In this document: positions 7,788 through 30,135 of the stretch, one piece after another
Layout: every line of letters begins with the position of its first letter
Numbering within the stretch: the stretch's first letter is position 1
From: Leidyana gryllorum EB-2025a
Lineage: Eukaryota > Protista > Apicomplexa
Direction of reading: 5' to 3'
DNA: 64,000 nucleotides
NCBI GenBank assembly: GCA_048772705.1
Contig: JBLWGC010000230.1
Location: 868,001 to 932,000 of the forward strand
Notes under the pieces: model-generated
What the model saw: the letters and a program-made list of their open reading frames with translations, nothing else
Told to the model about the DNA's origin: nothing
Database searches by the model: none
Program-made: the position numbers and the translations under genes

Positions 7788-8903
7788 CTATTCATTCCAC
7801 GGCCAAGTGCCTCTGCAAGATGGTACCTTCTTAGGGGCAGTGATATGTGGCAAATGCAATGTGTCCTTGACGTCTATGACAAATCGGAAACGAACGTCGC
7901 CTCGAACCATTCGTTCCATCGCCTCGTCTAAATGATCAGCTTTCACAACCTCCACCCATGGGACAACATTGTGTTCGCCAGCGAAATCAAACATTGCCTG
8001 CGTCTCCTCCACACTACCGGTCAATGTGCCTTGGATTCCACGCCTTTTGAAAGATAGCGTGGCAGGGGGGATCTGAATTTTGAACTCCTTGTTCGGTAGC
8101 CCTATGTTGATGATCATTCCGTCAGTCTTTAACAGTTCGAGGAATGGCTCAATTGGCTTCGCCGACGGGGCTGTGTCGATGATGAAGTTCAAAGTGCGAA
8201 CCCGCTCTGCCATTTCCTTTGGATCTTTGCTGTTGATGTAGTGAGCCGCCCCCAACTCCCGAGCGATCTTCTCTTTCTCAGGGAAAATGTCCATCACCGT
8301 CACCTCAGCCCCCATAGCCACACCAAACATCACGGCCAAATGACCCAAACCTCCCATCCCAACAACCCCAATCTTCATCCCAGGCTTCTTGTCCATACCC
8401 CAACGCCGCATGGGGCTGAAGACTGTCACGCCGGCACACAAGAGAGGGGCTGTCTTGGAGGCGTCCAGGTTTTTGGGAATCACAACTATGAACTCCTGAG
8501 GGGCAACCACATCTCGCGCCCATCCACCCTTCGTTATCTCATCGTCCGGCATTTTCCCGCTCAAAGTGGTAACTATGTTGTCGCAATAGTTCTCCCGATT
8601 GCTCTGGCATTCCTCGCACTTCCGACACGACCAGCAAATGTACCCCAAACCTACACGGTCTCCAACCTTGATGCGATCCACGTCAGATCCAACCGCCTTG
8701 GCAATCCCAACTACTTCATGTCCAGGAACCACAGGGTAGTAAGAGTTGCCCCACTCATTGCCAATATAGTGCAAATCAGTGTGACAAACTCCACAATACT
8801 CCACCTCTATGTGTACATCGTTTGCTCGCAACTCCCTCAACTCGATCTCCTCGGGGTGCAATTCACCACCCTGCGTTTTCGCTACCAATGCAACAGTCTT
8901 CAT
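7788..8903 (-). CDS. Zn-dependent alcohol dehydrogenase, cinnamyl-ADH/YahK-like MDR family, intronless
   Basis: CGVCHTDLH, GHEVVG, structural Zn CRKCEECQSNRENYC, APLLCAGVTVFSP, GMGGLG, GDVRFRFVID; first true ATG at 8903. Confidence 0.95.
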   Translation of the reverse strand: MKTVALVAKTQGGELHPEEIELRELRANDVHIEVEYCGVCHTDLHYIGNEWGNSYYPVVPGHEVVGIAKAVGSDVDRIKVGDRVGLGYICWSCRKCEECQSNRENYCDNIVTTLSGKMPDDEITKGGWARDVVAPQEFIVVIPKNLDASKTAPLLCAGVTVFSPMRRWGMDKKPGMKIGVVGMGGLGHLAVMFGVAMGAEVTVMDIFPEKEKIARELGAAHYINSKDPKEMAERVRTLNFIIDTAPSAKPIEPFLELLKTDGMIINIGLPNKEFKIQIPPATLSFKRRGIQGTLTGSVEETQAMFDFAGEHNVVPWVEVVKADHLDEAMERMVRGDVRFRFVIDVKDTLHLPHITAPKKVPSCRGTWPWNE

Positions 8904-14541: not shown

Positions 14542-15008
14542 TCTTTCTTCTTAGTTTGGTCCATTTTGACAGCCAATGCTCGGGATAGATGCGAACATAA
14601 GTGGTTGTGTACAACCAAGCTCTGGTTTTCAAGCTCAGTCAGCTCCATGACGAGGCGTCCAACGAGGATCTCGAGAGACGCCAACACCTCTTGACCGTTG
14701 GCAGTAATGTTGGGTCGCAGTTTCTCTATCTCCTTGTGAATAGCTTTGTCAAGGTCGTTGGCACCACTGGCCGACCGATAGGGGGTTGAGAGGCCAGCAA
14801 TGACCTCCTTATATTCTTCTTGGGACGCTTCGTGAGCGGCTAGTAGTCGCAAAGCTGGCAGCAGGGTCTTGAGGCTCATTGATGGAGCGAGTTGGGTGGT
14901 GTGAGACCGCGCATGGCCGGCGGTGAGGAAAGCCATGGCCTTGTTGTAGTAACGTTCAGGGTCTGTTCGGCCTATGGCCTCTGCTCGGGCCAGAAGGTCA
15001 AGGTTCAT
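14538..15008 (-). CDS. Orphan helical protein, 156 aa, intronless
   Basis: ORF MNLDLLARAEAIG...KKKD* with an AAA-ATG context and helical/coiled-coil composition; exactly fills the gap between UBLCP1 and PSMA5. Confidence 0.65.
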   Translation of the reverse strand: MNLDLLARAEAIGRTDPERYYNKAMAFLTAGHARSHTTQLAPSMSLKTLLPALRLLAAHEASQEEYKEVIAGLSTPYRSASGANDLDKAIHKEIEKLRPNITANGQEVLASLEILVGRLVMELTELENQSLVVHNHLCSHLSRALAVKMDQTKKKD

Positions 15009-16412
15009 TTTCGAACTTTTTTCTTCCAAGCGGAGTGATCCAAAAGGCAAACATCCTCCAATGGAGCTACACAACGCATGAGATACTCCCCCAACCCCAG
15101 CAATTCTCGATCGGTGACTCGCTGATCCACCGTGTACGGCGACACTCGTACACCATTCGCCGGATTGAGTATAAAGTTACGAGGCAGGTCATCGATTTGG
15201 AGACTGTTATGTGGGCCCCAACGCCCATTGCTCTTCTCCCAAATCAACAGCATCGCTTTCACTGCCGGCTCACTCCTCTTGGATGGCAATTTACAGTTAA
15301 TCATGCTCGATCTGAGGAGGACACTTGATGGGGGGGGGGCTCAAGACGTAGCTCGATACTCACTTATTCAAAGCAAATACGGGTCCAAATTCCGGATGGG
15401 CGAGCAGCCCCATCGAGGTCAGCTTCATTTCGACCCACTGCCAACGGGTTTGCGACCAGAAGGCTGTCACAGATTAGTGAGTGAAGTTAGAAGGGAGAAC
15501 TCGCTGAGCATTACCGAAATCATAGGCTGGCCACACCATCCGCAGGAACTCCATCAAATAAGGGCGGGCTAGCCACTCCATTGAATACCCTTGGGACGCT
15601 CCTACGAAAGATTAGTTAATGTAGAGCGATCACAGCATCTGATCGAGACATACCTCTGCAATCATAAATTGTATAGTCTATGTCTAGGACCAACAGCTTC
15701 TTGCCAGGTCGAGGCTGTCGTATGTAGCGCAAGTCGAGATTCTCCAAGGCCAGACGTAGACGCATTCTATTCACCGAACAGGATAAGCACTGTCCAGCGA
15801 GTTTCTGAGCCTCTATCGAGTTGTAGACCTCTGGGCTCATATCGAGATCTTCCTCCAGCGCCTTCTCCTCCTGTCGGTCTTGGGGTAGCTGTTCCGCTTC
15901 TGGGGTACCGACTAATATAAAGTCATTCGCAGTGAATTCGCATTGAGTCAAGTGGGTATCATCATCAGGCCGTCCACCAGTCTTCACTTTGATGCCGAGG
16001 AACTTCTGCAAGCCCAATACATGTTGTGACAATGTGGCAGGGGTGCTCGCGGGGGAAAAAGAGTGGGGGGAGCGGCGGCTGGCAACATTAGAAGTTCCAG
16101 AAACCGTCGACTCAGTGCCACGGCTCGCTGAAGGGGCGCGCAGAGTGGGGCCGAAGGGCCCAAAAGTCAGTTGAGGGGTGTTCCCACCCTCTCACCATGA
16201 CACGCGCGGTCGAGCAGCAGAGTTGCCCGCCCCGAAGTGGGTAGGAAGGAAAGGGTAGCCGGTCTTACCTGACGGTCAGCAGGAATGCAGAACTGCTCCT
16301 GTATGACCTGTTTGAGGTCACGAAGACTGCCGACCTGGTACTCGTCGGCAGTGAAGGGCAAAGGGTAGCCTTGACTCCGCCATCTGCAATTGAGCGTGAC
16401 TATTCCGTCCAT
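15005..16412 (-). CDS. UBLCP1: Ubiquitin-like domain-containing CTD phosphatase 1 (proteasome phosphatase), multi-exon
   Basis: N-terminal UBL (LRDLKQVIQEQFCIPADRQ|KFLG), PRPGKKLLVLDIDYTIYD (DxDxT), RPYLMEFL, WVEMKL, DDLPRNFILNP. Confidence 0.9.
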
Positions 16413-16436
16413 TTTTCTGACCATAAATCTCAATCA

Positions 16437-19400
16437 ATGAGACCCTCTCCTCCCAACTCCGCAGGTGTTCAGTCCAATGTTCCCGCCGCGTACAGTAGCC
16501 CAAACTTCCCCCCTCCCTCTGAGGAGTCCAACGCTCCCAGCAAGATGCAAGTCGATGCCCCAGACTTTGTCCCTGCACAGTGGCAACAGGCGCTTCCACA
16601 AGCACCACAGCAGCCCCAGCATCCGTGGCCCCTCCCTCACTTCACGCACGGTGGCTTCCAGCCCACCCTATATCAACACATGCCAGGTGACGAGCAGATG
16701 ATGTTCGGTCCAGGCGCCTATATGGCGCCCCACGAGCTCCATCCCTATCTGGACGAGCAAATGCGACAGCCGATGTGGCCCACAGCACATCACGCTATAA
16801 CTACTCTCACAACTACGAGCCCAGCTGAAGAAGAATGGACACGGACCACGCGCACGCGAAGCAGTCGTATGGCGGCTGATCTTCGGCCGGCCACACCCGA
16901 GCTATCACAGATACAGTTGCTGCAAATTGTCGTTGCCTGCAAGGAGAGTCTCGCTCTCGATCTTCAATTGGACTGGAAACAAACCTTCCTCGCGTACCTT
17001 GACAATGCTGCCCCACCCGACAAACTTCCTTCTCCGTTCCGACATTGTTTGGGTTACTTTATGCTCCCACCCCCCAAAATGCGATACATACATCCTTCCA
17101 TCACCGATGCGGCTTTATATGCTCTGCGCTGCCCCAAAGGTGAGTGCGAAGATCAGAGATCGGTCGTCGATTGTGCTGTGTTGAGTAGAAGATCGAGGAA
17201 CCCCGCCGACATTTGAGCTCACGACGACCCGTGCGCCTGGTTTTGAGAATGCCATTCGCAGCGACTGGCTCATACCCGTGGTTGCCTTCTTTTATTATGG
17301 CCTCCCGCCTCTGCGACTCCTAGTCGCCGGCCACGCTTGTAATGAAGCTTTGTGCTGGATTTGCGAACTGTCGTTCGTCTTTCGGGCGCTGGATGTCTGT
17401 CGGTGAGCCCCAGCTGGCTAGTGGGTCTGTGGTGTGACATCCCATCAGAGCCGAAGGTCGCGGCCAACCTATTCGCTTGGATAAATTCTGCGAGGCGTTG
17501 ATGCGAAGCGCCCCCACCACGCTCGGCTTGCAGACAGCTGAGAACAGTGAGGCTGACGCAGCGGACATGGTAATTTTACGTCCCCAAAATCGGTCTACTC
17601 AGTTCACTCCGATCAGTACACAAGATCGCTGCCTGGCGACAAGCCGCGACTGACCGCGCAAATCCGACGCTCCTGTGGAGCGCGTAGGAAGCTGCCGTGG
17701 CTTCGGTTGCGATCGGCACGCAACAATGACGATATGATACACAAGGCATCGCCTCATGACCGGCGTCGCGAACGAATAGCGCAAACAATTCGTAGAAATG
17801 AATCGGAGAGGAAGTGTGAACGCCAGCAACGCTTGGCCCGTAAGTCACGCCCAGCTATCTACTAAGCGCGAAAAATGCGCCTCGCTGTCTCCCTCCAGGT
17901 GCCAAGCTCCATTCCAAAGTCCATCTGGTGCTGAATTACTTCCTCCACGCGTTAGGAAATGTGCAAAGCACCCACGAGGATCTCTTCTGTATAAACATGG
18001 AAACTACGACCGAATGTCGTTTGGGCAGCTCTCTCCGACACAGAAGTGCTCCAGAAAGAGGCACTCACGTTCTCTATCAACACGCGGACGGCAATCGCAG
18101 CAGCAGTCTCAGCCGATCCTTGTCCGCTCGCGAAACCGTCAAGTCCACGCCCACGTATATCCTTGAACTTGACCACTCCATTTGGACACAGTAAGCCAAT
18201 CAACGCGTCCCCTGATTCACCCTATTCTAACTCAACCACAGATACAGAGAGCGGATCGTGACAGAGCCCGACTCCAATCCACCTGTTGAGCTGAGCTCGG
18301 GACCCGTGTCGACAGCAGAGAGCTTCATAGACAGTAGCCGCCCGTCGTCGCCTGCTATATCGTCGTCTGCTTCCTCAGCGTCGGACTCCCTCCCACGAAG
18401 TGTCGATGTTCCTCGCGTCACCCCCCGACCCAGCGAGATGAGGCCTTGGAAAATCTCCTTCGCTGACCTCTTGAGAGCCTCTCTGTGGCGAAGTTCAACC
18501 GTCCATATGACCTGTAAGCAGTGCGAGGCGGCAACGTCTCGTACTTCGCCACACGTCGTTTCTCATAGAGTGAAACAGGTTCGTATTTAACGGAACTCTG
18601 CACAGTGCATCCCTTCTCCCTATCAGATCTCTTCTCTGCCGGCAGTTCTGACCGTCAAAGTCAAACTGGCGAATGATCTCGAAGGCGGGGCGAAGGCTTT
18701 TGGACCACTGAGATTCTGGAGAGGCTTCAATCGACCGATCAGCGTTCCATGCGATCGAAAGGGTGTTGATGGCGGCTTGCGGAGTGTTTCCACCTTCTTT
18801 CCCAAGGGCACCCGTGGCAATCCTGACGACGACACCGATATGATGCGTCTCATCGCCAACCTTCTGAGACTCAAAGACAACCTTCGCAAACACCCGAACA
18901 GCACACGTACGAAAAGAGACCTGGAGGCACTTACTAGAGCTTTCAAAAGCATAATGGACTCCGAGATATCTCCGTTGCCAGGTAACTTCGACACGGAAAA
19001 TGTTCCCCTCTGAGCTCGGGACTTCTGACTCAGATCGGCTGCTGTTGAAGCTGCAAACGAGTAATCTTGCCACTGACCAGAATCCCTGGCGCGTCGTGGA
19101 AGCACATCGGGAGGATAGGGTCGCTTCTGACTGGCTGACTTATGATTTAATTGGGGTTCTGGTCTCAGTGAACCACATATACACTAGAAGAAGACGCCAC
19201 ATGCTGTTGCGGTTGTGGAAAGAAGACATATTGCCAAACCTGACGTCGGAGAACGGAAATGCAGTAAGTGACAGCCAGACTGCAACGAGATACTAACTAC
19301 AACCCATCGTGCCACTCACAACAGCTCACAGAAGAAGCATTGGAATCGGTGCTACAACGCTTAGAGGCTGAGGAAGTTGGTGTAGAGGCTCCGCCGGATG

Positions 19401-20541
19401 ATGATCAATTGGTTTGTTACATCCGGCAGGCGGGGGGAACATGGTTGATGATCAATGGTCCAGCCGTCTGCGAGGTATCCGAGCTCGAAGTCAGACAATT
19501 CTGTGTCCCTTGGAAGTATCCATGCGCACTGTTTTATGCGCAAACCTCCAAGATATGGTCTTCCCTCGGTCGGATGCCCCCACCACCGCCCCCTCTCCCC
19601 TCCACTGTCCACCTCTTCGCAGATGAGTCTGTCTCACAACTCCCATATGCCATGCGTCAACACCCAAGATTCCTGCCACTTTCGCCGGACGAAATTGCGC
19701 AGGTACAGGCTGGAGGATTCCTTGTTGCAATGGATGCAGAACACGTGGTCTTGGAACTGCTAAAGAAATCAAAAGCAGATCTGTTCCCCGGACACCCTTG
19801 CTTGGCTCTCGGCCGGTGAGCACTGATGCACGGAGAAGTACACACTTGATTATCAGAATGTCGTTGGTTCGAGCATACGGGGGACGTAATGACGGTCAGC
19901 CTTTTCTGGACCACTATGCACTTTTCAGAGACGAACCTTTCGACTACTGCACAGAGTAACTACACACGTGTGTGCTGCCTCATGCCATCGCCTTTGCCAG
20001 GTACTCGGGACTGTATCCTGGTGATCTGGACCTATCGGGCTCAACTCACTGGCTTGCGACTCAGAAACACATCTATCAAGTGATGCGATTTCTGGTGGAA
20101 AATCGATGTCGATTTATTGGGCACGATCTGTTTAACGATTTCCGGGTACTGGGGCTAATTGTACCTGCATCACAGATCATCGACACGGTGGAGATATTCC
20201 GAAAGTCGTTGAATTCACGTTTCTTGTCTCTCCGATTTGTGTGCTACCACGTGTTGCATCGCGAAGTGCAGCGTTACACACATGACTCAATTGAGGATGC
20301 GAGAGCTGCGCTGGCACTATATCGGTGAGGCACAAATCACTTCTGAGCACCTAAAGTGATCTTCCCCAGATACTATCTGCAATATGTGAATGAGCATTCG
20401 CAAGCTGATTTCCAGAACCAAGAAGTGGAACGACTGTACAATATTGGGTACCAGACGAACTTCAAGGTGCATATGCTTCCAAGTCCGTCGTCTGCTACTC
20501 CAACTGATCAGATGTTCGGCCATCCACCAGCCCCTTGTTAG
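16437..20541 (+). CDS. PAN2: PAN2-like poly(A) deadenylase (pseudo-UCH plus DEDDh nuclease; no WD40 seen), multi-exon
   Basis: GFENAIRSDW..HACNEALCWICELSFVFRAL (PAN2 pseudo-UCH start), WKYPCALFY, VAMDAEHV, YSGLYPGDLD, FIGHDLFNDFRV, IDTVEIF, SLRF, HDSIEDARAALALY. Confidence 0.88.
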
Positions 20542-20646: not shown

Positions 20647-22005
20647 TCAAATCATTCCTGCGCCACCCATCATGGGAGGCTGTTGGGATTGCTGGGGTTG
20701 TTGAGCGGGCTGCTGAGGCATGGGAGGAGCCGGTTGGGGAAGAGGAGGCGGCTGAGCACTCTCAGTGGTTTCCTCCACATCTTCAGACGTCTCTTCCTGG
20801 CCAGCCTCCTCGGTCTCGGCTTCTTCCTCAGCTTCCTCAGTCTCCCCAGCCTCTTGTTCTTCGGTTTCTCCAGCTTCTTTTTCTTCAGTTTCGTCGCTAC
20901 CTTCTTCGGCGGCCTCGGTCTCGCCGGCTTCTTCCTCTCCTGCTTCTTCGGTCTCACCAGCTTCGGCAGCTTCCTCAGTCTCTTCGGCTTCCGTCTCATT
21001 GTCTTCGCCAGTTTCCTCAGTTTCTTCACCTTCGCCCTCTTCTCCAGCGGCTTCGGTTTCTTCGCCCTCAGCCTCAGTCTCTGAGCCCTCTTCCTCCTCG
21101 GCCTCAGTGGACTCTACTTCCTCCTCGCCTGCTTCCTCCTCATCGGAGCTGCTGCACGGACTCTCATCCGAGTCCGAGTCCTCGTCCTCATCACCAGGAA
21201 CGGGAGGTCGGGGGGTGGGTAGACCGCCGGACTTCTTACCACCGATGAGGTCGGCGGCGGCACCTGGGACGACGGGACCAGCCTGAGCAGCGGCAGCTGC
21301 TTCGGGGGTCATCTCCGGCACCGCGAAACCATCCGGATAGATCATGGCGTTCGAGAAACGGGAGGGATAGGGGGCGAGCGGGTTGACAAAGGGATAGGTA
21401 GGGGCAGCAACGGGTGACGCAGCAAAGTTGGCGACGGGAGTATAGGCAGGACTAGCATAGCTGGACTTGCTGGTGGTATAACCTTGATTGTACAATTGAG
21501 GAGCATAATAAGACGGTTGAGCAAATTGTTGTCCCTGTGTGGTAGGGTACATCTGTTGACCTTTCGTGGTGGGATACATCTGGGCAGCGCGGGAGAAAAT
21601 GGAGTCCTTGCTGGGAACTGAGGGGAAGCTGAAAGAGGGCAATTGAGACGCAGTGGGGAATGCAGCGCCCTTCTTTGAGCTTGCGACCGGGGTAGGCTGC
21701 GGGATAGCAGCCATGGAGCCCTTCTTTGAGCTGACCACCGGCGTGAACTGCGGGATAGCGGAGCCCTTCTTTGAGCTTGCCACCGGGGTGTATTGCGGAA
21801 CAGCCGCTCCAACACCTTGCTTCGAGCTGACTGGAGTCGGGACCGGGGTACCCTTCTTGGACAGCGTGGTGCTTGGCGCATATTGGCTGGGCTGAACAAC
21901 TCCGCTCTTGGTAGGCAAAACAGGGGTGAAACTCGGTTGGTAGCTGGACTTGGACAACTGGGCAGACGCCAGAGAGACGAGTCCGACAGCAAGGAGAGAC
22001 CTCAT
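20647..22005 (-). CDS. Secreted low-complexity repeat protein, 452 aa, intronless
   Basis: Signal peptide MRSLLAVGLVSLASA, repeated TPV(A/V)SSKKG units, Tyr/Pro/Gln-rich middle, Glu-rich acidic repeat region and Pro/Gln tail. Confidence 0.85.
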   Translation of the reverse strand: MRSLLAVGLVSLASAQLSKSSYQPSFTPVLPTKSGVVQPSQYAPSTTLSKKGTPVPTPVSSKQGVGAAVPQYTPVASSKKGSAIPQFTPVVSSKKGSMAAIPQPTPVASSKKGAAFPTASQLPSFSFPSVPSKDSIFSRAAQMYPTTKGQQMYPTTQGQQFAQPSYYAPQLYNQGYTTSKSSYASPAYTPVANFAASPVAAPTYPFVNPLAPYPSRFSNAMIYPDGFAVPEMTPEAAAAAQAGPVVPGAAADLIGGKKSGGLPTPRPPVPGDEDEDSDSDESPCSSSDEEEAGEEEVESTEAEEEEGSETEAEGEETEAAGEEGEGEETEETGEDNETEAEETEEAAEAGETEEAGEEEAGETEAAEEGSDETEEKEAGETEEQEAGETEEAEEEAETEEAGQEETSEDVEETTESAQPPPLPQPAPPMPQQPAQQPQQSQQPPMMGGAGMI

Positions 22006-24526: not shown

Positions 24527-25570
24527 ATGCAAGACAAAGAACCCATCAGCTTTTTCATTACATTGATATGTCTAATCGCAGCTCTCTTCTTTACCTTTGG
24601 ATTCCTCTATCATCTGCCCCCTGAAAGAGCCGTTGTCACCATCTCTGAAACCCTTGCCAGTGTGGCACCCATTTACGTTATCACCCCCACGTACTTCCGT
24701 GCAGCACAAGTGCCTCACCTCGTGCGCCAATTTTGGGCTCTGGCCGGTCCTCATGGCGCAAACATCACTTGGATCCTCGTACAGGACGCCTCGAAAGTTG
24801 ATCCAATGATAGAGCGCGAACTTTCAAAACTCCTCGACACTCTCTATCCTCCAGATCAAGAAGAGCAAACCCCTTCTGCGCGCATGCTCAATGTCCATTA
24901 TATCAGCCTCAACCGACCCCCAGTCACCAGCAAGAGATGTCGGGGGCTATTACCGCGCAACGCGGGTTTCCAACGGGTCTTCAAGTTGGCTGAAGAAGCT
25001 GACAACTGGGATGGCTGGCTTTACTTCCTAGACGATGACAACACCATCGACCCACGTTTGTGGGACGAAATACGTAAGGTTCAGCGGGTAGGCTTATGGC
25101 CAGTTGGGAATATGGGAGGTAGAGGAGTGAGCACCCCGCTGTTGAATGAGAAAGGGCACATTGTTGGAATGTTCGACGGATACATGAAAAGGAGGTTCCC
25201 TGTGGACACCGCTGGGCTTGGGTTCAAGTTGGATTTTCTGCGCACGCGTGCGCTAGACCAAAATGCCACCCCGGAGACGTACTGGCCGTGGGGGGAATGT
25301 CGGGCGGGCCTGCAGGAGTCTATCTTGATGGCCAAGACGGGTTTGGGGTGGAATGAGATAGAACCGTTGGCCAATCAGTGCACCGAGATTTTGGTTTGGC
25401 ACACACAGACAAAGGACATAGAGTTGGATTTGCCCTTGGAAGAGATTGCACAGACCGCGATGGCCCATTCGAACTTTGCGGCTTTCGCCAACCTACTTGA
25501 AAGGGAGGTGGTTCATCAGGAGCGGCAAAAGGCAACAAAAGTTGGGGCAAAAACTGCCAAGGCTACATGA
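24527..25570 (+). CDS. GT43 glycosyltransferase (beta-1,3-glucuronosyltransferase-like), copy 1
   Basis: Type II TM, IYVITPTY, YFLDDDNT, VGLWPVG, FPVDTAG, QES, EPLANQCTEILVWHTQT. Confidence 0.92.
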   Translation: MQDKEPISFFITLICLIAALFFTFGFLYHLPPERAVVTISETLASVAPIYVITPTYFRAAQVPHLVRQFWALAGPHGANITWILVQDASKVDPMIERELSKLLDTLYPPDQEEQTPSARMLNVHYISLNRPPVTSKRCRGLLPRNAGFQRVFKLAEEADNWDGWLYFLDDDNTIDPRLWDEIRKVQRVGLWPVGNMGGRGVSTPLLNEKGHIVGMFDGYMKRRFPVDTAGLGFKLDFLRTRALDQNATPETYWPWGECRAGLQESILMAKTGLGWNEIEPLANQCTEILVWHTQTKDIELDLPLEEIAQTAMAHSNFAAFANLLEREVVHQERQKATKVGAKTAKAT

Positions 25571-26760
25571 TCCGAGACCCTGTCATCTGCATTGGTCTTT
25601 TCACATTATTGGCGTGTCTCGGTATCTACCTGACTCACCGTAGTGAAATAGGCGCTTGGGTGGAGCCAAGATATCTTCAAGATTTGCAACCCAGCATTCG
25701 AGGTACACCATATAGCACGAGTGACAACGAGCCTCTTGAGCGAAGAGATGGTCCGGTTTACGTAGTGACGCCTGTCACCAAGAACGTGAGCACAATCCCC
25801 CATTTGACGAGACTGATGTGGACGCTGGGGACCGTTGGAGATGTGCACTGGATAATTATTGAGGACGACATCAATGTCAGTGACCGTCTGCGCAGTGTAT
25901 TGCAGCAGGAGTTGGATCGTCTCTGTTCTCATCGAGCTTATCCAAACTGTACCCTAGTGATCGATTACATGGCTCATGCAGACAAGGCGTCGAGGATGAA
26001 AAGGGTGTGTCGAGGCCGATTGCCACGGAATGCTGGTATCCGGCGTACTATCCAATTAGCTCAAGAAGCGGATACTGGCGGTTGGCTTTACTTTCTTGAT
26101 GACGATAACACGTTCTCTCCGCTCCTGTTTGACGAGATTAGGAAAATTAAGAAAGTTGGTGTATGGCCTGTTGGGAACATGGGATCGACATTGATATCTT
26201 CACCCCTGCTGGATGTAAATGGCAAGGTGACAGCGTTCTACGACGGTTACGCTGGTCGGAAGTATCAAATGGATATGGCCGGCTTCGGCTTTAATATTAA
26301 TTTCATGTTTGAGAAGGCAGCCTCAGCGGGCGTGCCGACAGCCGAGTACTGGACTTGGGACAAATGTCACGTGGGCAAGCAGGAGTCCGATCTCGTGTCT
26401 AAAGGCGTAGATAAGCTCGCTGATCTGGAGCCCTTGGCATCAAATTGCACAGAGATCTACGTCTGGCACACTCAAACAGCCAAAGTCCCTCCGATCAAAA
26501 CTTGGAAGTTCAAGGCTCTTGTCAACAAAGCATCGCAGTACATCAATGGCCCCCAAATATTGCAATTGTTCGAAACTTATGGAGCCGCCGTGCCTGAAGT
26601 TCCCGACAGTATACTCCCGATCATCCTGAAACAATCAACTCCAACTCCAACTTCCACCACCACTACCACCACTACCACTACCACTACAACGAGCCGAGAG
26701 AGTACGAGGGCTGCTGCAGACGCGGATGACGAGAGCATTTCTGGTGCTATTGCGGATTGA
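25567..26760 (+). CDS. GT43 glycosyltransferase, copy 2, with poly-Thr tail
   Basis: Type II TM, VYVVTP, YFLDDDNT, VGVWPVG, MDMAGFGF, QES, LEPLASNCTEIYVWHTQT. Confidence 0.92.
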   Translation: MIRDPVICIGLFTLLACLGIYLTHRSEIGAWVEPRYLQDLQPSIRGTPYSTSDNEPLERRDGPVYVVTPVTKNVSTIPHLTRLMWTLGTVGDVHWIIIEDDINVSDRLRSVLQQELDRLCSHRAYPNCTLVIDYMAHADKASRMKRVCRGRLPRNAGIRRTIQLAQEADTGGWLYFLDDDNTFSPLLFDEIRKIKKVGVWPVGNMGSTLISSPLLDVNGKVTAFYDGYAGRKYQMDMAGFGFNINFMFEKAASAGVPTAEYWTWDKCHVGKQESDLVSKGVDKLADLEPLASNCTEIYVWHTQTAKVPPIKTWKFKALVNKASQYINGPQILQLFETYGAAVPEVPDSILPIILKQSTPTPTSTTTTTTTTTTTTSRESTRAAADADDESISGAIAD

Positions 26761-27259
26761 AGGTCAGGTGCCAAGATTTGTGGCGCCACCAGACTCTTTT
26801 CGGGTATGGAATTTGTTCCGGTCGCTGGTGGAGTGAGGAAGCGGGCGAACTCACTCCCTCAACTCAACTCGCTCGAGTCAGGCGAATGGATCTCATACCG
26901 ATAGAATGCAAATGTATCTTTACTCTCTTCTTCTCCTCTCCTCTCTGTCTCACTTCTTTCCTCTTTGACTCTGTGTATCTCACGGTCCCTGTCTCTGTTC
27001 CCATGTTGTTTAAGTCATTGATAGTTAGCGTTACTGTGCTGACAAAATCGATGCAGAATAGGCGAAGCGTGAGTTGGTAATGACGTGTGTTATGACGGTA
27101 GGTTCTGGCTGTCCAGCAGCCTCACATCAGCAGCAATTGACCTTCCAAGCGGCACTGCGACCGAAATAATCTACGCAGTCTATATTGGGATCTCAGTTTT
27201 GTCTCTCGGATACACTTTACTGAATCGTCCTCGGCGCGCCGCCCCCCCCGCAAACGTCG

Positions 27260-28402
27260 ATGTCGAGGCGACTCTTTTTACTGTGCGCTGCCGTGTTGAG
27301 CTTTTGCGTCACTGCACTCTTCTTATATTCCAGCGATGGGGGTCATCAGCGGTACTCACCGTCGCCAAACATGAGTCAATCAGTGGACATGAAGGTTTCA
27401 CAGGAGGGGCCAACAATGGATGCGCGGGCAATCGAGAGACCGCTCCTGGTCGATGATCACGGGCCCCCGGTATATGTCATAACCCCAGTGAAGAAGGACG
27501 TTCGCACTATTCCACACATTTTGAGGCAGATGTGGATGATGAAAGCCGCAGGGAGTGTACATTGGATCATCGTGCAAGATGATCTCAAGGTAGACGAAGG
27601 ATTCCGAGACACAATCAATGAGGAGCTGCGTTATGTATGTTCTCCTTTGGGCGTGGAGGCTTGTAGTCTGGTGGTCGACATCATAAGTCCCCCCACGATT
27701 CCGGGAAAGGAAGATCAATCAACCTGTCGGGGGCGAGTGCCCCGCAATGAAGGCATTCGGCGTGCTCTCAAGTGGGCTGTGAATGCGCGAACCGCTGATA
27801 ATTCGACCGATGGCACCCATCATCGACCTTCGGGATGGCTATATTTCCTCGATGACGACAATACCGTGTCGCCACGATTGTTCGCAGAGATCCGGCGCAT
27901 CAAACGAGTCGGCGTGTGGCCGGTCGGTAGTATGGGGAGCACTTTGATCTCTTCACCCCTCCTCGACCACGAAGGGAAAGTTGCAAGTTTTTACGACATA
28001 TTCACTGAAAGGGAGTATCAGATGGATATGGCCGGATACGCCTTCAATATTGATTTAATGTTGGCCAGAGCCCTCGAAGCCGGACTCGATCCCGGCGATT
28101 ATTGGGTGTGGCACAGCTGCCATCAGGGCCAAATGGAATCCGAGCTCATTGCCAAAGCTGTCGATGGTTTAGATCAGCTGGAGCCATTGGCCTCCAATTG
28201 TTCCAAATTGTTAGTTTGGCACACTCAGACCTCCAAAGTGGCTAGCGTATTGGCCGCCAAACACCAGTGGCTGGCCAATCAATCATCTAATTATAGCAAC
28301 GTCCAGAGTCTGCTCAACATGTTTGACCTCTATGGGCCTCGTTTTTTGACCAACAACCGCCTTCGAAGACGCAAAGGGGGGCGTAAAAAATCTACCAGGT
28401 AG
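27260..28402 (+). CDS. GT43 glycosyltransferase, copy 3
   Basis: Type II TM, VYVITP, YFLDDDNT, VGVWPVG, MDMAGYAF, MES, LEPLASNCSKLLVWHTQT. Confidence 0.92.
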   Translation: MSRRLFLLCAAVLSFCVTALFLYSSDGGHQRYSPSPNMSQSVDMKVSQEGPTMDARAIERPLLVDDHGPPVYVITPVKKDVRTIPHILRQMWMMKAAGSVHWIIVQDDLKVDEGFRDTINEELRYVCSPLGVEACSLVVDIISPPTIPGKEDQSTCRGRVPRNEGIRRALKWAVNARTADNSTDGTHHRPSGWLYFLDDDNTVSPRLFAEIRRIKRVGVWPVGSMGSTLISSPLLDHEGKVASFYDIFTEREYQMDMAGYAFNIDLMLARALEAGLDPGDYWVWHSCHQGQMESELIAKAVDGLDQLEPLASNCSKLLVWHTQTSKVASVLAAKHQWLANQSSNYSNVQSLLNMFDLYGPRFLTNNRLRRRKGGRKKSTR

Positions 28403-28560
28403 CCTCTCACATGTGCAAAAGTAGAGTATCATTGTGTGTTCGACCATTCGACCCTATCCAAACGACTAAAAGAAACGGAGCAATACATACCCCCCCTTCA
28501 CCTTCCAAGGTACTTTGAGACTGAGTACGAGACTTCAAAAAAACTTATTACCAGTCCAGG

Positions 28561-30135
28561 ATGACCATCACGGTGGAAGTGCAGCCCGCATCCCACGATG
28601 AGCGAAAGACGCGGTCTCGTGCTGAGGTGATCATTTTCCGACTTTTGTTGTTAGCGCTGCTGGTATCCGCCGTCTTATTGATTGGGTTATTATGCTACAG
28701 TTCGGTGGGGCGGACGGAAAGCGAGCGCAGGGCTGCGGCAGCTGTGCAAGTGAATGAGGAGCTTTTTTCGACAGCCCCAGCTGCTCGGCGGAAACTAATG
28801 ATCGTTGATGGCAATGAAGTTGACGAGAGCTCGTTAACCAGCTTGGACTACGAGTCTCCTATATATGTAATCACTCCGACTTATCGACACCGGCAGCAAG
28901 TATTACATTTGACGCGACACCTATGGCTCTTAGCCACGGTACCCAATATAGTTTGGATTGTTATACAGGACGATGTTGAGACCGACCCCTTCATACGCGA
29001 TTACCTCCGGGATCAGATGCGCGAGATACGACAGAACCCCTTTTACCGCGAGTCCACTCTACAGCTCGTTTACATCGGACGAGGTCCCCGTGGCCGTGAT
29101 GCCAAAAGGCGAATCTGTCGTGGCCGTCTGGGAAGAAACAAAGCCTTCGCGGAAGTCGCAGCCCGAGCTTTGCATCCCCAGCTCGCGCTCGCTGATAGGG
29201 AGGAAGCCGAGTCTTCGGGAAGGTTTGTTCAGCAAGGTGTACACAACCACAGCGGTCTGCGCTTTGCAGAATCGAAGCCAAGTATGACTGGGTGGCTCTA
29301 TTTCCTCGATGATGACAATACCTTCACCCCGGCACTCTTCACGGAAGTGCGCAAGATCAAACGAGTTGGGGTGTGGCCTGTTGGAAACATGGCCAGAGTG
29401 CTGACGAGTTCCCCGCTTGTCTTCCCAAACAACACTGTGGGAGCCTTCCTGGACGGATACACCCACCGAACTTGGACGCTCGACATGGCTGGTTTCGGTT
29501 TCAGCATCGACTGGATGAACCAGAGGGCACAGGACGCTGGCCAGAGTTTCTACGAGTACTGGCACCTCAAGGACTGCCAAAGGGGAGGGATGGAGAGCAT
29601 CATGTTGGATAGAGCTGTTAGCTCTCGCCTCGAGATGGAGCCTCTGGCCGATAGATGCACCAAGACTCTTGTGTGGCACACGAGAACTGAGGACATTGGA
29701 GCCGTCAAAAACGGTTACCGGCAATGGTTGTATCGGCGAAAAGGTGTTTTTGTCAATGCTGACAGTCTCCTTCGGGAGATCGAACATCACGGGCTCGCCA
29801 AAGACCATATCGCTGCCCAGCCTCCTCCCTTCCTCGGTCTCCCTGGAGACGCAGATCAGATCATGGGGGTTGGGTGGTACCCCGATCTCCTCCACCACGA
29901 TGATGAAGAAGCCGATAACCTCCCCGCAGTAGCTGACAAGATCCCGTCGCGGCCCTCAGATGAGCTCCCAGTTGTTGAGTTTCTCGTCCCAGATGCCCAA
30001 GGCGACTTCCTCCCCCCCCTCTCTGACCGAAAGCCCCACAATCCGTCACCGAAAAACGAAGGGGTGCATCTGGTCGTCAAAGATGATGGAACCGTCCACA
30101 AGTCGAACCCTCCTAAACAAGTTATGGCCGTTTAG
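28561..30135 (+). CDS. GT43 glycosyltransferase, copy 4, with insertions and C-terminal extension
   Basis: Type II TM, IYVITPTY, YFLDDDNT, VGVWPVG, LDMAGFGF, MES, MEPLADRCTKTLVWHTRT. Confidence 0.92.
   Translation: MTITVEVQPASHDERKTRSRAEVIIFRLLLLALLVSAVLLIGLLCYSSVGRTESERRAAAAVQVNEELFSTAPAARRKLMIVDGNEVDESSLTSLDYESPIYVITPTYRHRQQVLHLTRHLWLLATVPNIVWIVIQDDVETDPFIRDYLRDQMREIRQNPFYRESTLQLVYIGRGPRGRDAKRRICRGRLGRNKAFAEVAARALHPQLALADREEAESSGRFVQQGVHNHSGLRFAESKPSMTGWLYFLDDDNTFTPALFTEVRKIKRVGVWPVGNMARVLTSSPLVFPNNTVGAFLDGYTHRTWTLDMAGFGFSIDWMNQRAQDAGQSFYEYWHLKDCQRGGMESIMLDRAVSSRLEMEPLADRCTKTLVWHTRTEDIGAVKNGYRQWLYRRKGVFVNADSLLREIEHHGLAKDHIAAQPPPFLGLPGDADQIMGVGWYPDLLHHDDEEADNLPAVADKIPSRPSDELPVVEFLVPDAQGDFLPPLSDRKPHNPSPKNEGVHLVVKDDGTVHKSNPPKQVMAV

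Follow-up and report, generated by a model that had tools for sequence, protein, structure and literature searches.

How can a poly(A)-trimming enzyme reach its substrate once the parts that bind its usual partner are gone? This question is raised by a PAN2 gene of Leidyana gryllorum EB-2025a (assembly GCA_048772705.1, contig JBLWGC010000230.1, positions 868,001-932,000 of the forward strand). The whole stretch of 64,000 nucleotides (nt) is called the window, and all coordinates refer to it. The gene (16437..20541, plus strand) consists of 12 exons and encodes 1186 amino acids (aa). Judged by its sequence, the product is a PAN2 ortholog that would work like PAN2 and departs from the canonical architecture in the WD40 domain. 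A preliminary description had read it as a WD40-less PAN2 that carries a PAM2-like motif of its own and acts independently of PAN3.

A PAN2 ortholog with all catalytic residues

Best matches and tree placement show the gene to be a PAN2 ortholog. Like PAN2 of other systems (yeast Pan2, human PAN2/USP52; PDB 6r5k, 9qtu, 4czw), which is the catalytic subunit of PAN2-PAN3, the predicted protein contains a pseudo-UCH domain followed by a DEDDh nuclease with the catalytic residues D, E, D, H, and D. The pseudo-UCH domain (17236..19543, plus strand, approximately aa 251-898) carries gregarine-specific insertions and is matched by Pfam UCH_1 from about residue 252 (E 0.0011 on exon 2) and again on exon 6, in agreement with the preliminary placement some 250 codons from the ATG. 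For the ortholog P0002, UCH_1 is matched with an E value of 8e-15. The exonuclease domain (19712..20373, plus strand) is matched by Pfam RNase_T on exon 11. Herein, all five DEDDh residues are present: D962 (19733), E964 (19739), D1068 (20137), H1116 (20281), and D1121 (20296). An aromatic residue is kept at the position matching yeast Y975, presumably a functional position of yeast Pan2. D1068 aligns with D1020 of yeast Pan2, whose replacement by Ala gives the catalytically dead form (PMC6547884).

With the nuclease exon, six of seven PDB matches, including the top ones, are PAN2, and a protein search yields 55 matches among 403 candidates. When a profile was run against the complete set of 50% representatives, the nearest named relatives among the best 150 of 2948 are Blabericola migrator (P0001/P0056) and Gregarina sp. 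Poly1 (P0059); P0002, P0003, P0060, and fragments are further near relatives among the same 150. Blabericola reaches 74% over the nuclease exon, its records being 5'-truncated. The tree comprises 28 rows of the UCH-nuclease part and PAN2s only, with no other exonucleases. The window PAN2, P0002, Blabericola, P0003, and P0060 form a clade with a support of 100/100, and P0002, P0003, and P0060 are called gregarine-like from this placement only. P0059 is left out because its record departs from the PAN2 frame ahead of the nuclease, near residue 990, probably through a transcript assembly error. In a metagenome scan, none of 29 PAN2 loci is nearer to the gregarine proteins than to canonical PAN2.

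The N-terminal region without a WD40 domain

In canonical PAN2, the N-terminal, seven-bladed WD40 domain and the linker bind the Pan3 dimer and, thus, constitute the PAN3-binding parts (PMC4158885 and PMC10590902). The window protein differs from this architecture in having no WD40 domain, no detectable PAN3-binding linker, and a disordered N terminus with a PAM2-like motif. The preliminary reading of a Pro/Gln-rich N terminus without WD40 is borne out by composition and profile tests alike. The first 150 aa (16437..16886, plus strand) stand in the place of the WD40 domain and form a Pro/Ala/Gln-rich low-complexity region (Pro 17%, Ala 10%, Gln 9%) that is predicted to be disordered. No secondary structure is seen for it in a low-confidence AlphaFold model with a mean predicted local distance difference test (pLDDT) of 46.0; this model and that of P0059 (mean pLDDT 35.8) are used only for the absence of β-strands and the presence of helices. 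A predicted helical block follows (16887..17048, plus strand, aa 151-204), which is weakly conserved (11/53 and 8/53 identical to two full-length orthologs), and then a conserved pre-UCH segment (17049..17235, plus strand, aa 205-250, across intron 1) with 21/46, 22/46, 21/46, and 13/46 identities to four orthologs.

A WD40-plus-linker profile was built from the pre-UCH regions of 127 PAN2s. It recovers held-out Cryptosporidium (E 5e-36), Eimeria (E 5e-14), and Perkinsus (E 3e-79) and gives no match in the window PAN2, P0002, P0059, P0060, P0003, Neospora, Cystoisospora, and Toxoplasma; of the 1920 segments from a six-frame translation of the window, the best has an E value of 1.7. In a second test, all 23 test proteins were held out, namely, 15 apicomplexan PAN2s and 8 non-apicomplexan controls. 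The WD40 profile finds 8/8 controls and six of the 15 apicomplexans (Cryptosporidium, four piroplasms, and Eimeria), the window PAN2 not being matched. The linker (PID) profile reaches 40 bits or more in six of eight controls and 10 bits in a seventh; Perkinsus is missed, and none of the 15 apicomplexan PAN2s is matched.

The absence of the WD40 domain is settled for the window PAN2 since only about 204 residues precede the pre-UCH segment, as compared with approximately 300 plus 100 for WD40 and linker, and the first 150 of these are of low complexity without predicted structure. The linker is likely lost as well: the length and predicted structure of the pre-UCH region speak for it, and the linker profile gives no match, short profiles being less sensitive on apicomplexans. 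P0002 and P0059 start with similar tails of about 200 residues, which are barely alignable with the window protein (30/131 and 34/137 identical). P0003 and P0060, with 101 and 120 residues, respectively, ahead of their UCH domains, may be truncated. A protein search led by an N-terminal alignment finds P0002 only (one match among 7989 scored candidates) and no close relative's first exon; ESM Atlas gives no usable match to exon 1.

WD40 loss within Apicomplexa

The sequences show the WD40 loss to be clade-wide, i.e., common to the window PAN2 and the gregarine clade around Gregarina sp. Poly1 and relatives. The Blabericola and Toxoplasma records are partial, and their N-terminal state is incompletely visible. 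Two separate losses are indicated, one in the gregarine clade and one in the sarcocystids (Neospora/Cystoisospora/Toxoplasma), because the WD40-less label needs two changes in 200/200 bootstrap trees and a single clade of WD40-less proteins is rejected (p-AU, the P value of the approximately unbiased test, of 0.017, from a quick tree of 18 rows that did not use the mixture model). Eimeria keeps its WD40 domain and is sister to the sarcocystids at 100/99; Vitrella and Perkinsus show the ancestral state. Of the architecture that the preliminary description proposed to look for in other apicomplexans, the WD40 loss recurs, and the motif does not recur in the gregarine orthologs.

As in the window PAN2, a low-complexity region replaces the WD40 domain in sarcocystid PAN2 (Neospora P0210/P0218, Cystoisospora P0215, Toxoplasma partial P0216). 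These proteins differ in the separate origin of the loss and in N termini of more than 800 aa in Neospora and Cystoisospora. Neospora contains three core-pattern PAM2-like motifs; the Toxoplasma record contains a repeated near-motif with one full match, the 19-residue repeat ending in PAFSP; and Cystoisospora has no PAM2-like match. In all four piroplasm PAN2s examined (P0063, P0066, P0068, P0088; Theileria, Babesia), an insert in the WD40 region carries the stretch IPEF[VI]P, which is PAM2-like but has Ile where PAM2 has Ala; these proteins have no space for the PAN3-binding linker.

The PAM2-like motif

The motif SKMQVDAPDFVP lies at 16539..16574 (plus strand, aa 35-46) within the low-complexity tail and offers M3, V5, A7, D9, F10, and P12. 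PAM2 is defined by a hydrophobic residue at position 3 (usually Leu), a polar residue at 4, Pro, Val, or Thr at 5, Ala at 7, preferably Glu at 9, Phe at 10, and Pro at 12 (PMC2854688). SKMQVDAPDFVP satisfies this definition with Met3, Gln4, and Asp9; the S-x-L pattern cited in the preliminary description fits at this place only when Met is taken for Leu. Shuffling gives the full pattern with P values of 0.007 (aa 1-150), 0.013 (aa 1-243), and 0.020 (whole protein), and the core pattern, which omits position 5, with 0.027, 0.048, and 0.099, respectively. Furthermore, the full pattern is matched nowhere else in the window, whose six-frame translation comprises 106,338 residues. The presence of a PAM2-like motif beyond chance is thereby shown at the level of sequence statistics. 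A second core match, at residue 646 within the UCH domain, does not fit at position 5 and is regarded as fortuitous.

With the PAM2 motifs of PAN3, eRF3, Paip2, Tob, and ataxin-2 (PF07145), the window motif shares the hydrophobic position 3, V5, A7, the acidic position 9, F10, P12, and the location in a disordered region; it differs in sitting on PAN2 itself. A possible binding partner, the MLLE domain, is kept in Plasmodium PABP1, an apicomplexan PABP (PMC5760745). That the motif binds MLLE in the cell is favored slightly over its not doing so.

PAM2-like motifs also occur on other PAN2s. In a census of 198 PAN2 records of at least 700 aa, some of them redundant, the full pattern is found in 7 records as compared with 2.5 expected and the core pattern in 27 as compared with 14.7. 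Clear cases within disordered tails are P0098 (four motifs), P0137 (two; Pfam PAM2 E 0.005), Rhodelphis P0094, and the three of Neospora. P0098, P0137, and P0094 retain WD40 and linker; therefore, the gain of a PAM2 is not tied to the loss of WD40. By this comparison of sequences, PAM2 on PAN2 is a recurrent add-on and not a result of WD40 loss. The motif of the window PAN2 would thus be accessory rather than defining, a plausible extra tether in this species.

An Arg-rich helix in the UCH domain

The window protein further differs from canonical PAN2 in a UCH insertion of 70-150 aa with an Arg-rich helix at its end (17740..17963, plus strand, aa 388-442, across intron 4), a candidate RNA-binding element. 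The span from C-x-x-C-E-L to the next UCH helix has a median of 56 residues in canonical PAN2 (range 53-99; 67 records matching both patterns) and comprises 127-209 residues in six members of the gregarine clade. The helix contains 14-16 Arg/Lys residues and has a net charge of +8 to +13 in five of the six, P0060 having +1. It is among the more confident helices of the low-confidence P0059 model (463-519). Canonical PAN2s carry basic patches elsewhere. The helix is a better-conserved candidate for replacing PAN3 than the PAM2-like motif, RNA binding being inferred from its sequence; it may instead be a nuclear signal.

Possible routes to the substrate

A PAN2 that has neither WD40 nor linker nor PAN3 must reach its substrate in some other way. 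The yeast UCH-nuclease module touches the 3'-most Pab1 (PMC4158885, PMC6547884, and PMC10590902). The WD40 domain of yeast senses a second Pab1-Pab1 interface, and its deletion ends the Pab1 stimulation on long tails, the activity on 40A staying (PMC6547884). The engineered Pan2-ΔWD40 of that work lacks the propeller like the window PAN2; it is normal on 40A ribonucleoproteins (RNPs), impaired on 90A, and not stimulated by Pab1. It retains linker and Pan3, both of which the window PAN2 appears to have lost.

The best explanation, which we hold at even confidence, is that a PAN2 with intact catalytic residues trims poly(A) as a single chain without PAN3, the PAM2-like motif being a probable accessory PABP tether. 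Herein, the PAN3-binding linker would have gone along with the WD40 domain. The UCH-nuclease module would still meet the 3'-most PABP as in yeast, the conserved Arg-rich helix could give the RNA affinity that normally comes from PAN3, and the species-specific PAM2 may contribute a weak MLLE contact. UCH-nuclease contact and helix are, thus, the candidate routes for the clade as a whole. Since the WD40 domain is the length sensor in yeast, such an enzyme is predicted to show no preference for long (multi-PABP) tails. Taken by itself, PAN3 independence of the window PAN2 is quite probable from its sequence; that it holds together with MLLE binding of the motif is an evenly balanced matter. The WD40 loss, the undetectable linker, and a survey without Pan3 (discussed below) fit the PAN3-independent part of the preliminary reading; a PAM2 that replaced PAN3 throughout the clade does not stand.

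Points against and alternative explanations

Several points weigh against this explanation and are given here with the alternatives on which they bear. Less probably, the enzyme is PAN3-independent with the PAM2-like match being incidental, so that recruitment would run via the UCH-nuclease/PABP contact and the Arg-rich helix, as in orthologs that have no motif. Compared with known PAM2, the motif carries Met-Gln at positions 3 and 4 in place of the usual Leu-Asn. It lies under Pfam detection: among the four profiles proposed as a check by the preliminary description, UCH_1 and RNase_T are matched, WD40 gives no match as that description had it, and PAM2 (PF07145) gives no match to the motif at E<=10. 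The four clear motifs of P0098 likewise escape this Pfam model. A PDB peptide search with the motif gives no match either. Conservation of the motif, which had been set as a test beforehand, fails: even the relaxed pattern is found in none of the four orthologs with an N terminus (full-length P0002 and P0059; short P0060 and P0003). Hence, across the whole clade, PAN3 cannot have been replaced by this motif. A degenerate remnant in P0002, which has the Leu and the Ala at their positions but neither the Phe nor the Pro, is not counted, the local alignment being unreliable. Shuffling yields the core pattern in 3-5% of cases for the N terminus and in 10% for the whole protein, with the second match falling inside UCH, and the Arg-rich helix is kept in five of six clade members. 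PAM2-MLLE binding is weak (40-150 μM), and the Pan3 N terminus matters little in vitro (PMC4158885, PMC6547884, and PMC10590902). An incidental match is opposed by the rarity of the full published pattern by chance (P 0.007-0.02) and its location in a disordered tail. Moreover, short motifs turn over fast, the ortholog tails barely align, and the nearest orthologs are only about 40% identical overall to the window PAN2.

It is improbable that a partner is still required, namely, a diverged PAN3 or a new adaptor on the helical block (aa 151-250) that provides RNA and PABP contacts. Isolated Pan2 binds RNA poorly and, in yeast and Chaetomium, has low activity (PMC4158885, PMC6547884, and PMC10590902), and yeast Pan2 without WD40, which still assembles with Pan3 via the linker, retains its activity on short tails (PMC6547884). 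The 31-position pre-UCH profile missed 15/15 apicomplexans although the segment is visible by eye, the linker profile failed on Perkinsus, and the held-out WD40 profile missed Porospora; the non-detection of the linker is, thus, partly a sensitivity limit. Porospora itself probably has a diverged WD40 domain since 477 residues precede its UCH and a match is seen only when it is in the training set. In the tables of a survey, Pan2 is given for Cryptosporidium parvum and Theileria parva and Pan3 for no apicomplexan or other alveolate (PMC5862402, S4 Table C, D). This speaks against a partner, with the limit that the supplements of the survey contain no Gregarina. The block 151-204 is, furthermore, poorly conserved and predicted to be helical, unlike the extended linker reported by PMC4158885.

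Even less probable is that the protein no longer takes part in bulk deadenylation in the cytoplasm and acts by itself as a DEDDh exonuclease on RNA ends of other kinds, with the basic helix as a nuclear signal or general RNA grip. The loss of the length-sensing WD40, the long branch of the gregarine clade, and Plasmodium, which manages without a reported Pan2, would suit it; the nuclease domain is nearest to PAN2 throughout, the aromatic residue at the Y975 position is kept, and the PAM2-like motif points toward poly(A) RNPs. Very improbable, finally, is a gene-model artifact with WD40 exons upstream or in a separate gene: the model and its 5' end come from sequence and homology and the search for a split WD40 covered the 64-kb window, but none of the 1920 six-frame segments matches, UBLCP1 fills the upstream DNA, and two independent orthologs (P0059 from a transcriptome-derived set, and P0002) start with a like tail of similar length.

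Gene structure and neighboring genes

The gene model is based on sequence and homology. Exons 1-6 lie at 16437-17139, 17189-17402, 17449-17569, 17617-17839, 17899-18190, and 18242-18578 and exons 7-12 at 18627-18981, 19034-19263, 19325-19815, 19857-19955, 20001-20324, and 20370-20541. All 11 introns are GT-AG and 41-61 nt long, and the single stop ends the reading frame. Junctions 2, 4, 7, 9, 10, and 11 (6/11) align gap-free with orthologs; junctions 1, 3, 5, 6, and 8 fall within variable stretches and are less certain, by a few residues. A possible alternative start, Met37, has A at -3, as compared with T for Met1; a purine is found there in 10 of 15 other first ATGs of the window. If translation started at Met37, the initiator Met would be position 3 of the PAM2-like motif; several other PAN2s have a PAM2-like motif beginning at Met1.

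The divergent neighbor UBLCP1 (15005..16412, minus strand) is identified by a NIF domain (Pfam), PDB 3shq (E 2.4e-4), and a first exon of ubiquitin-like type (ESM Atlas, with scores reaching 0.87); phmmer against the PDB with this exon alone gives no match. Its ATG (16412) lies head to head with that of PAN2 at a distance of 24 nt, as described preliminarily; an in-frame UBLCP1 ATG at 16424 would reduce this to 12 nt. Hence, the 5' untranslated region of each gene must overlap the other gene. The gap alone does not exclude further exons, contrary to the preliminary argument, the PAN2 frame being open from 16245, upstream of the ATG at 16437. Intron 1 of UBLCP1 (16006-16268) far exceeds the PAN2 introns with 263 nt and could house a promoter. 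An RRM gene of the window was considered as PABP and rejected, being an SR-type protein by inspection.

Elsewhere in the window, four glycosyltransferase family 43 genes stand in tandem (24527-30132), the third (27260-28402) being recognized by inspection. The stop codon of gene one and the ATG of gene two overlap (ATGA, 25567-25570). An intronless open reading frame at 20647-22005 (minus strand) has an apparent signal peptide, Pro/Ser-rich repeats, and a long Glu-rich tract, with no Pfam match. A zinc-dependent alcohol dehydrogenase gene at 7791-8903 (minus strand) is intronless among intron-rich neighbors.

Implications for PAN2 in Apicomplexa

In the literature searched (titles, abstracts, and passages, with most subscription journals outside coverage), no WD40-less or PAM2-bearing PAN2 is described. 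A 2021 paper stated that Pan2/Pan3 were not identified in Apicomplexa (PMC8562791), and the apicomplexan PAN2s correct this for Pan2. As a speculative scenario, to which we give somewhat less than even credence, Apicomplexa lost PAN3 early and PAN2 was rebuilt several times as a self-sufficient deadenylase, with gregarines and sarcocystids dropping the WD40 length sensor and lineages acquiring PABP hooks of their own. These hooks would be the PAM2 of this gregarine, the several motifs of Neospora/Toxoplasma, the IPEF[VI]P insert in the piroplasm WD40, and the Arg-rich helix of gregarines. If true, this would bring the first single-chain PAN deadenylases known from nature. In the accepted view, PAN2 depends on PAN3 to bind RNA and on WD40 to sense tail length; natural PAN2s without both would constitute a test of the minimal deadenylase and of whether length sensing is dispensable. 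Because Toxoplasma and Neospora share the architecture, the question can be approached in a genetically accessible organism.
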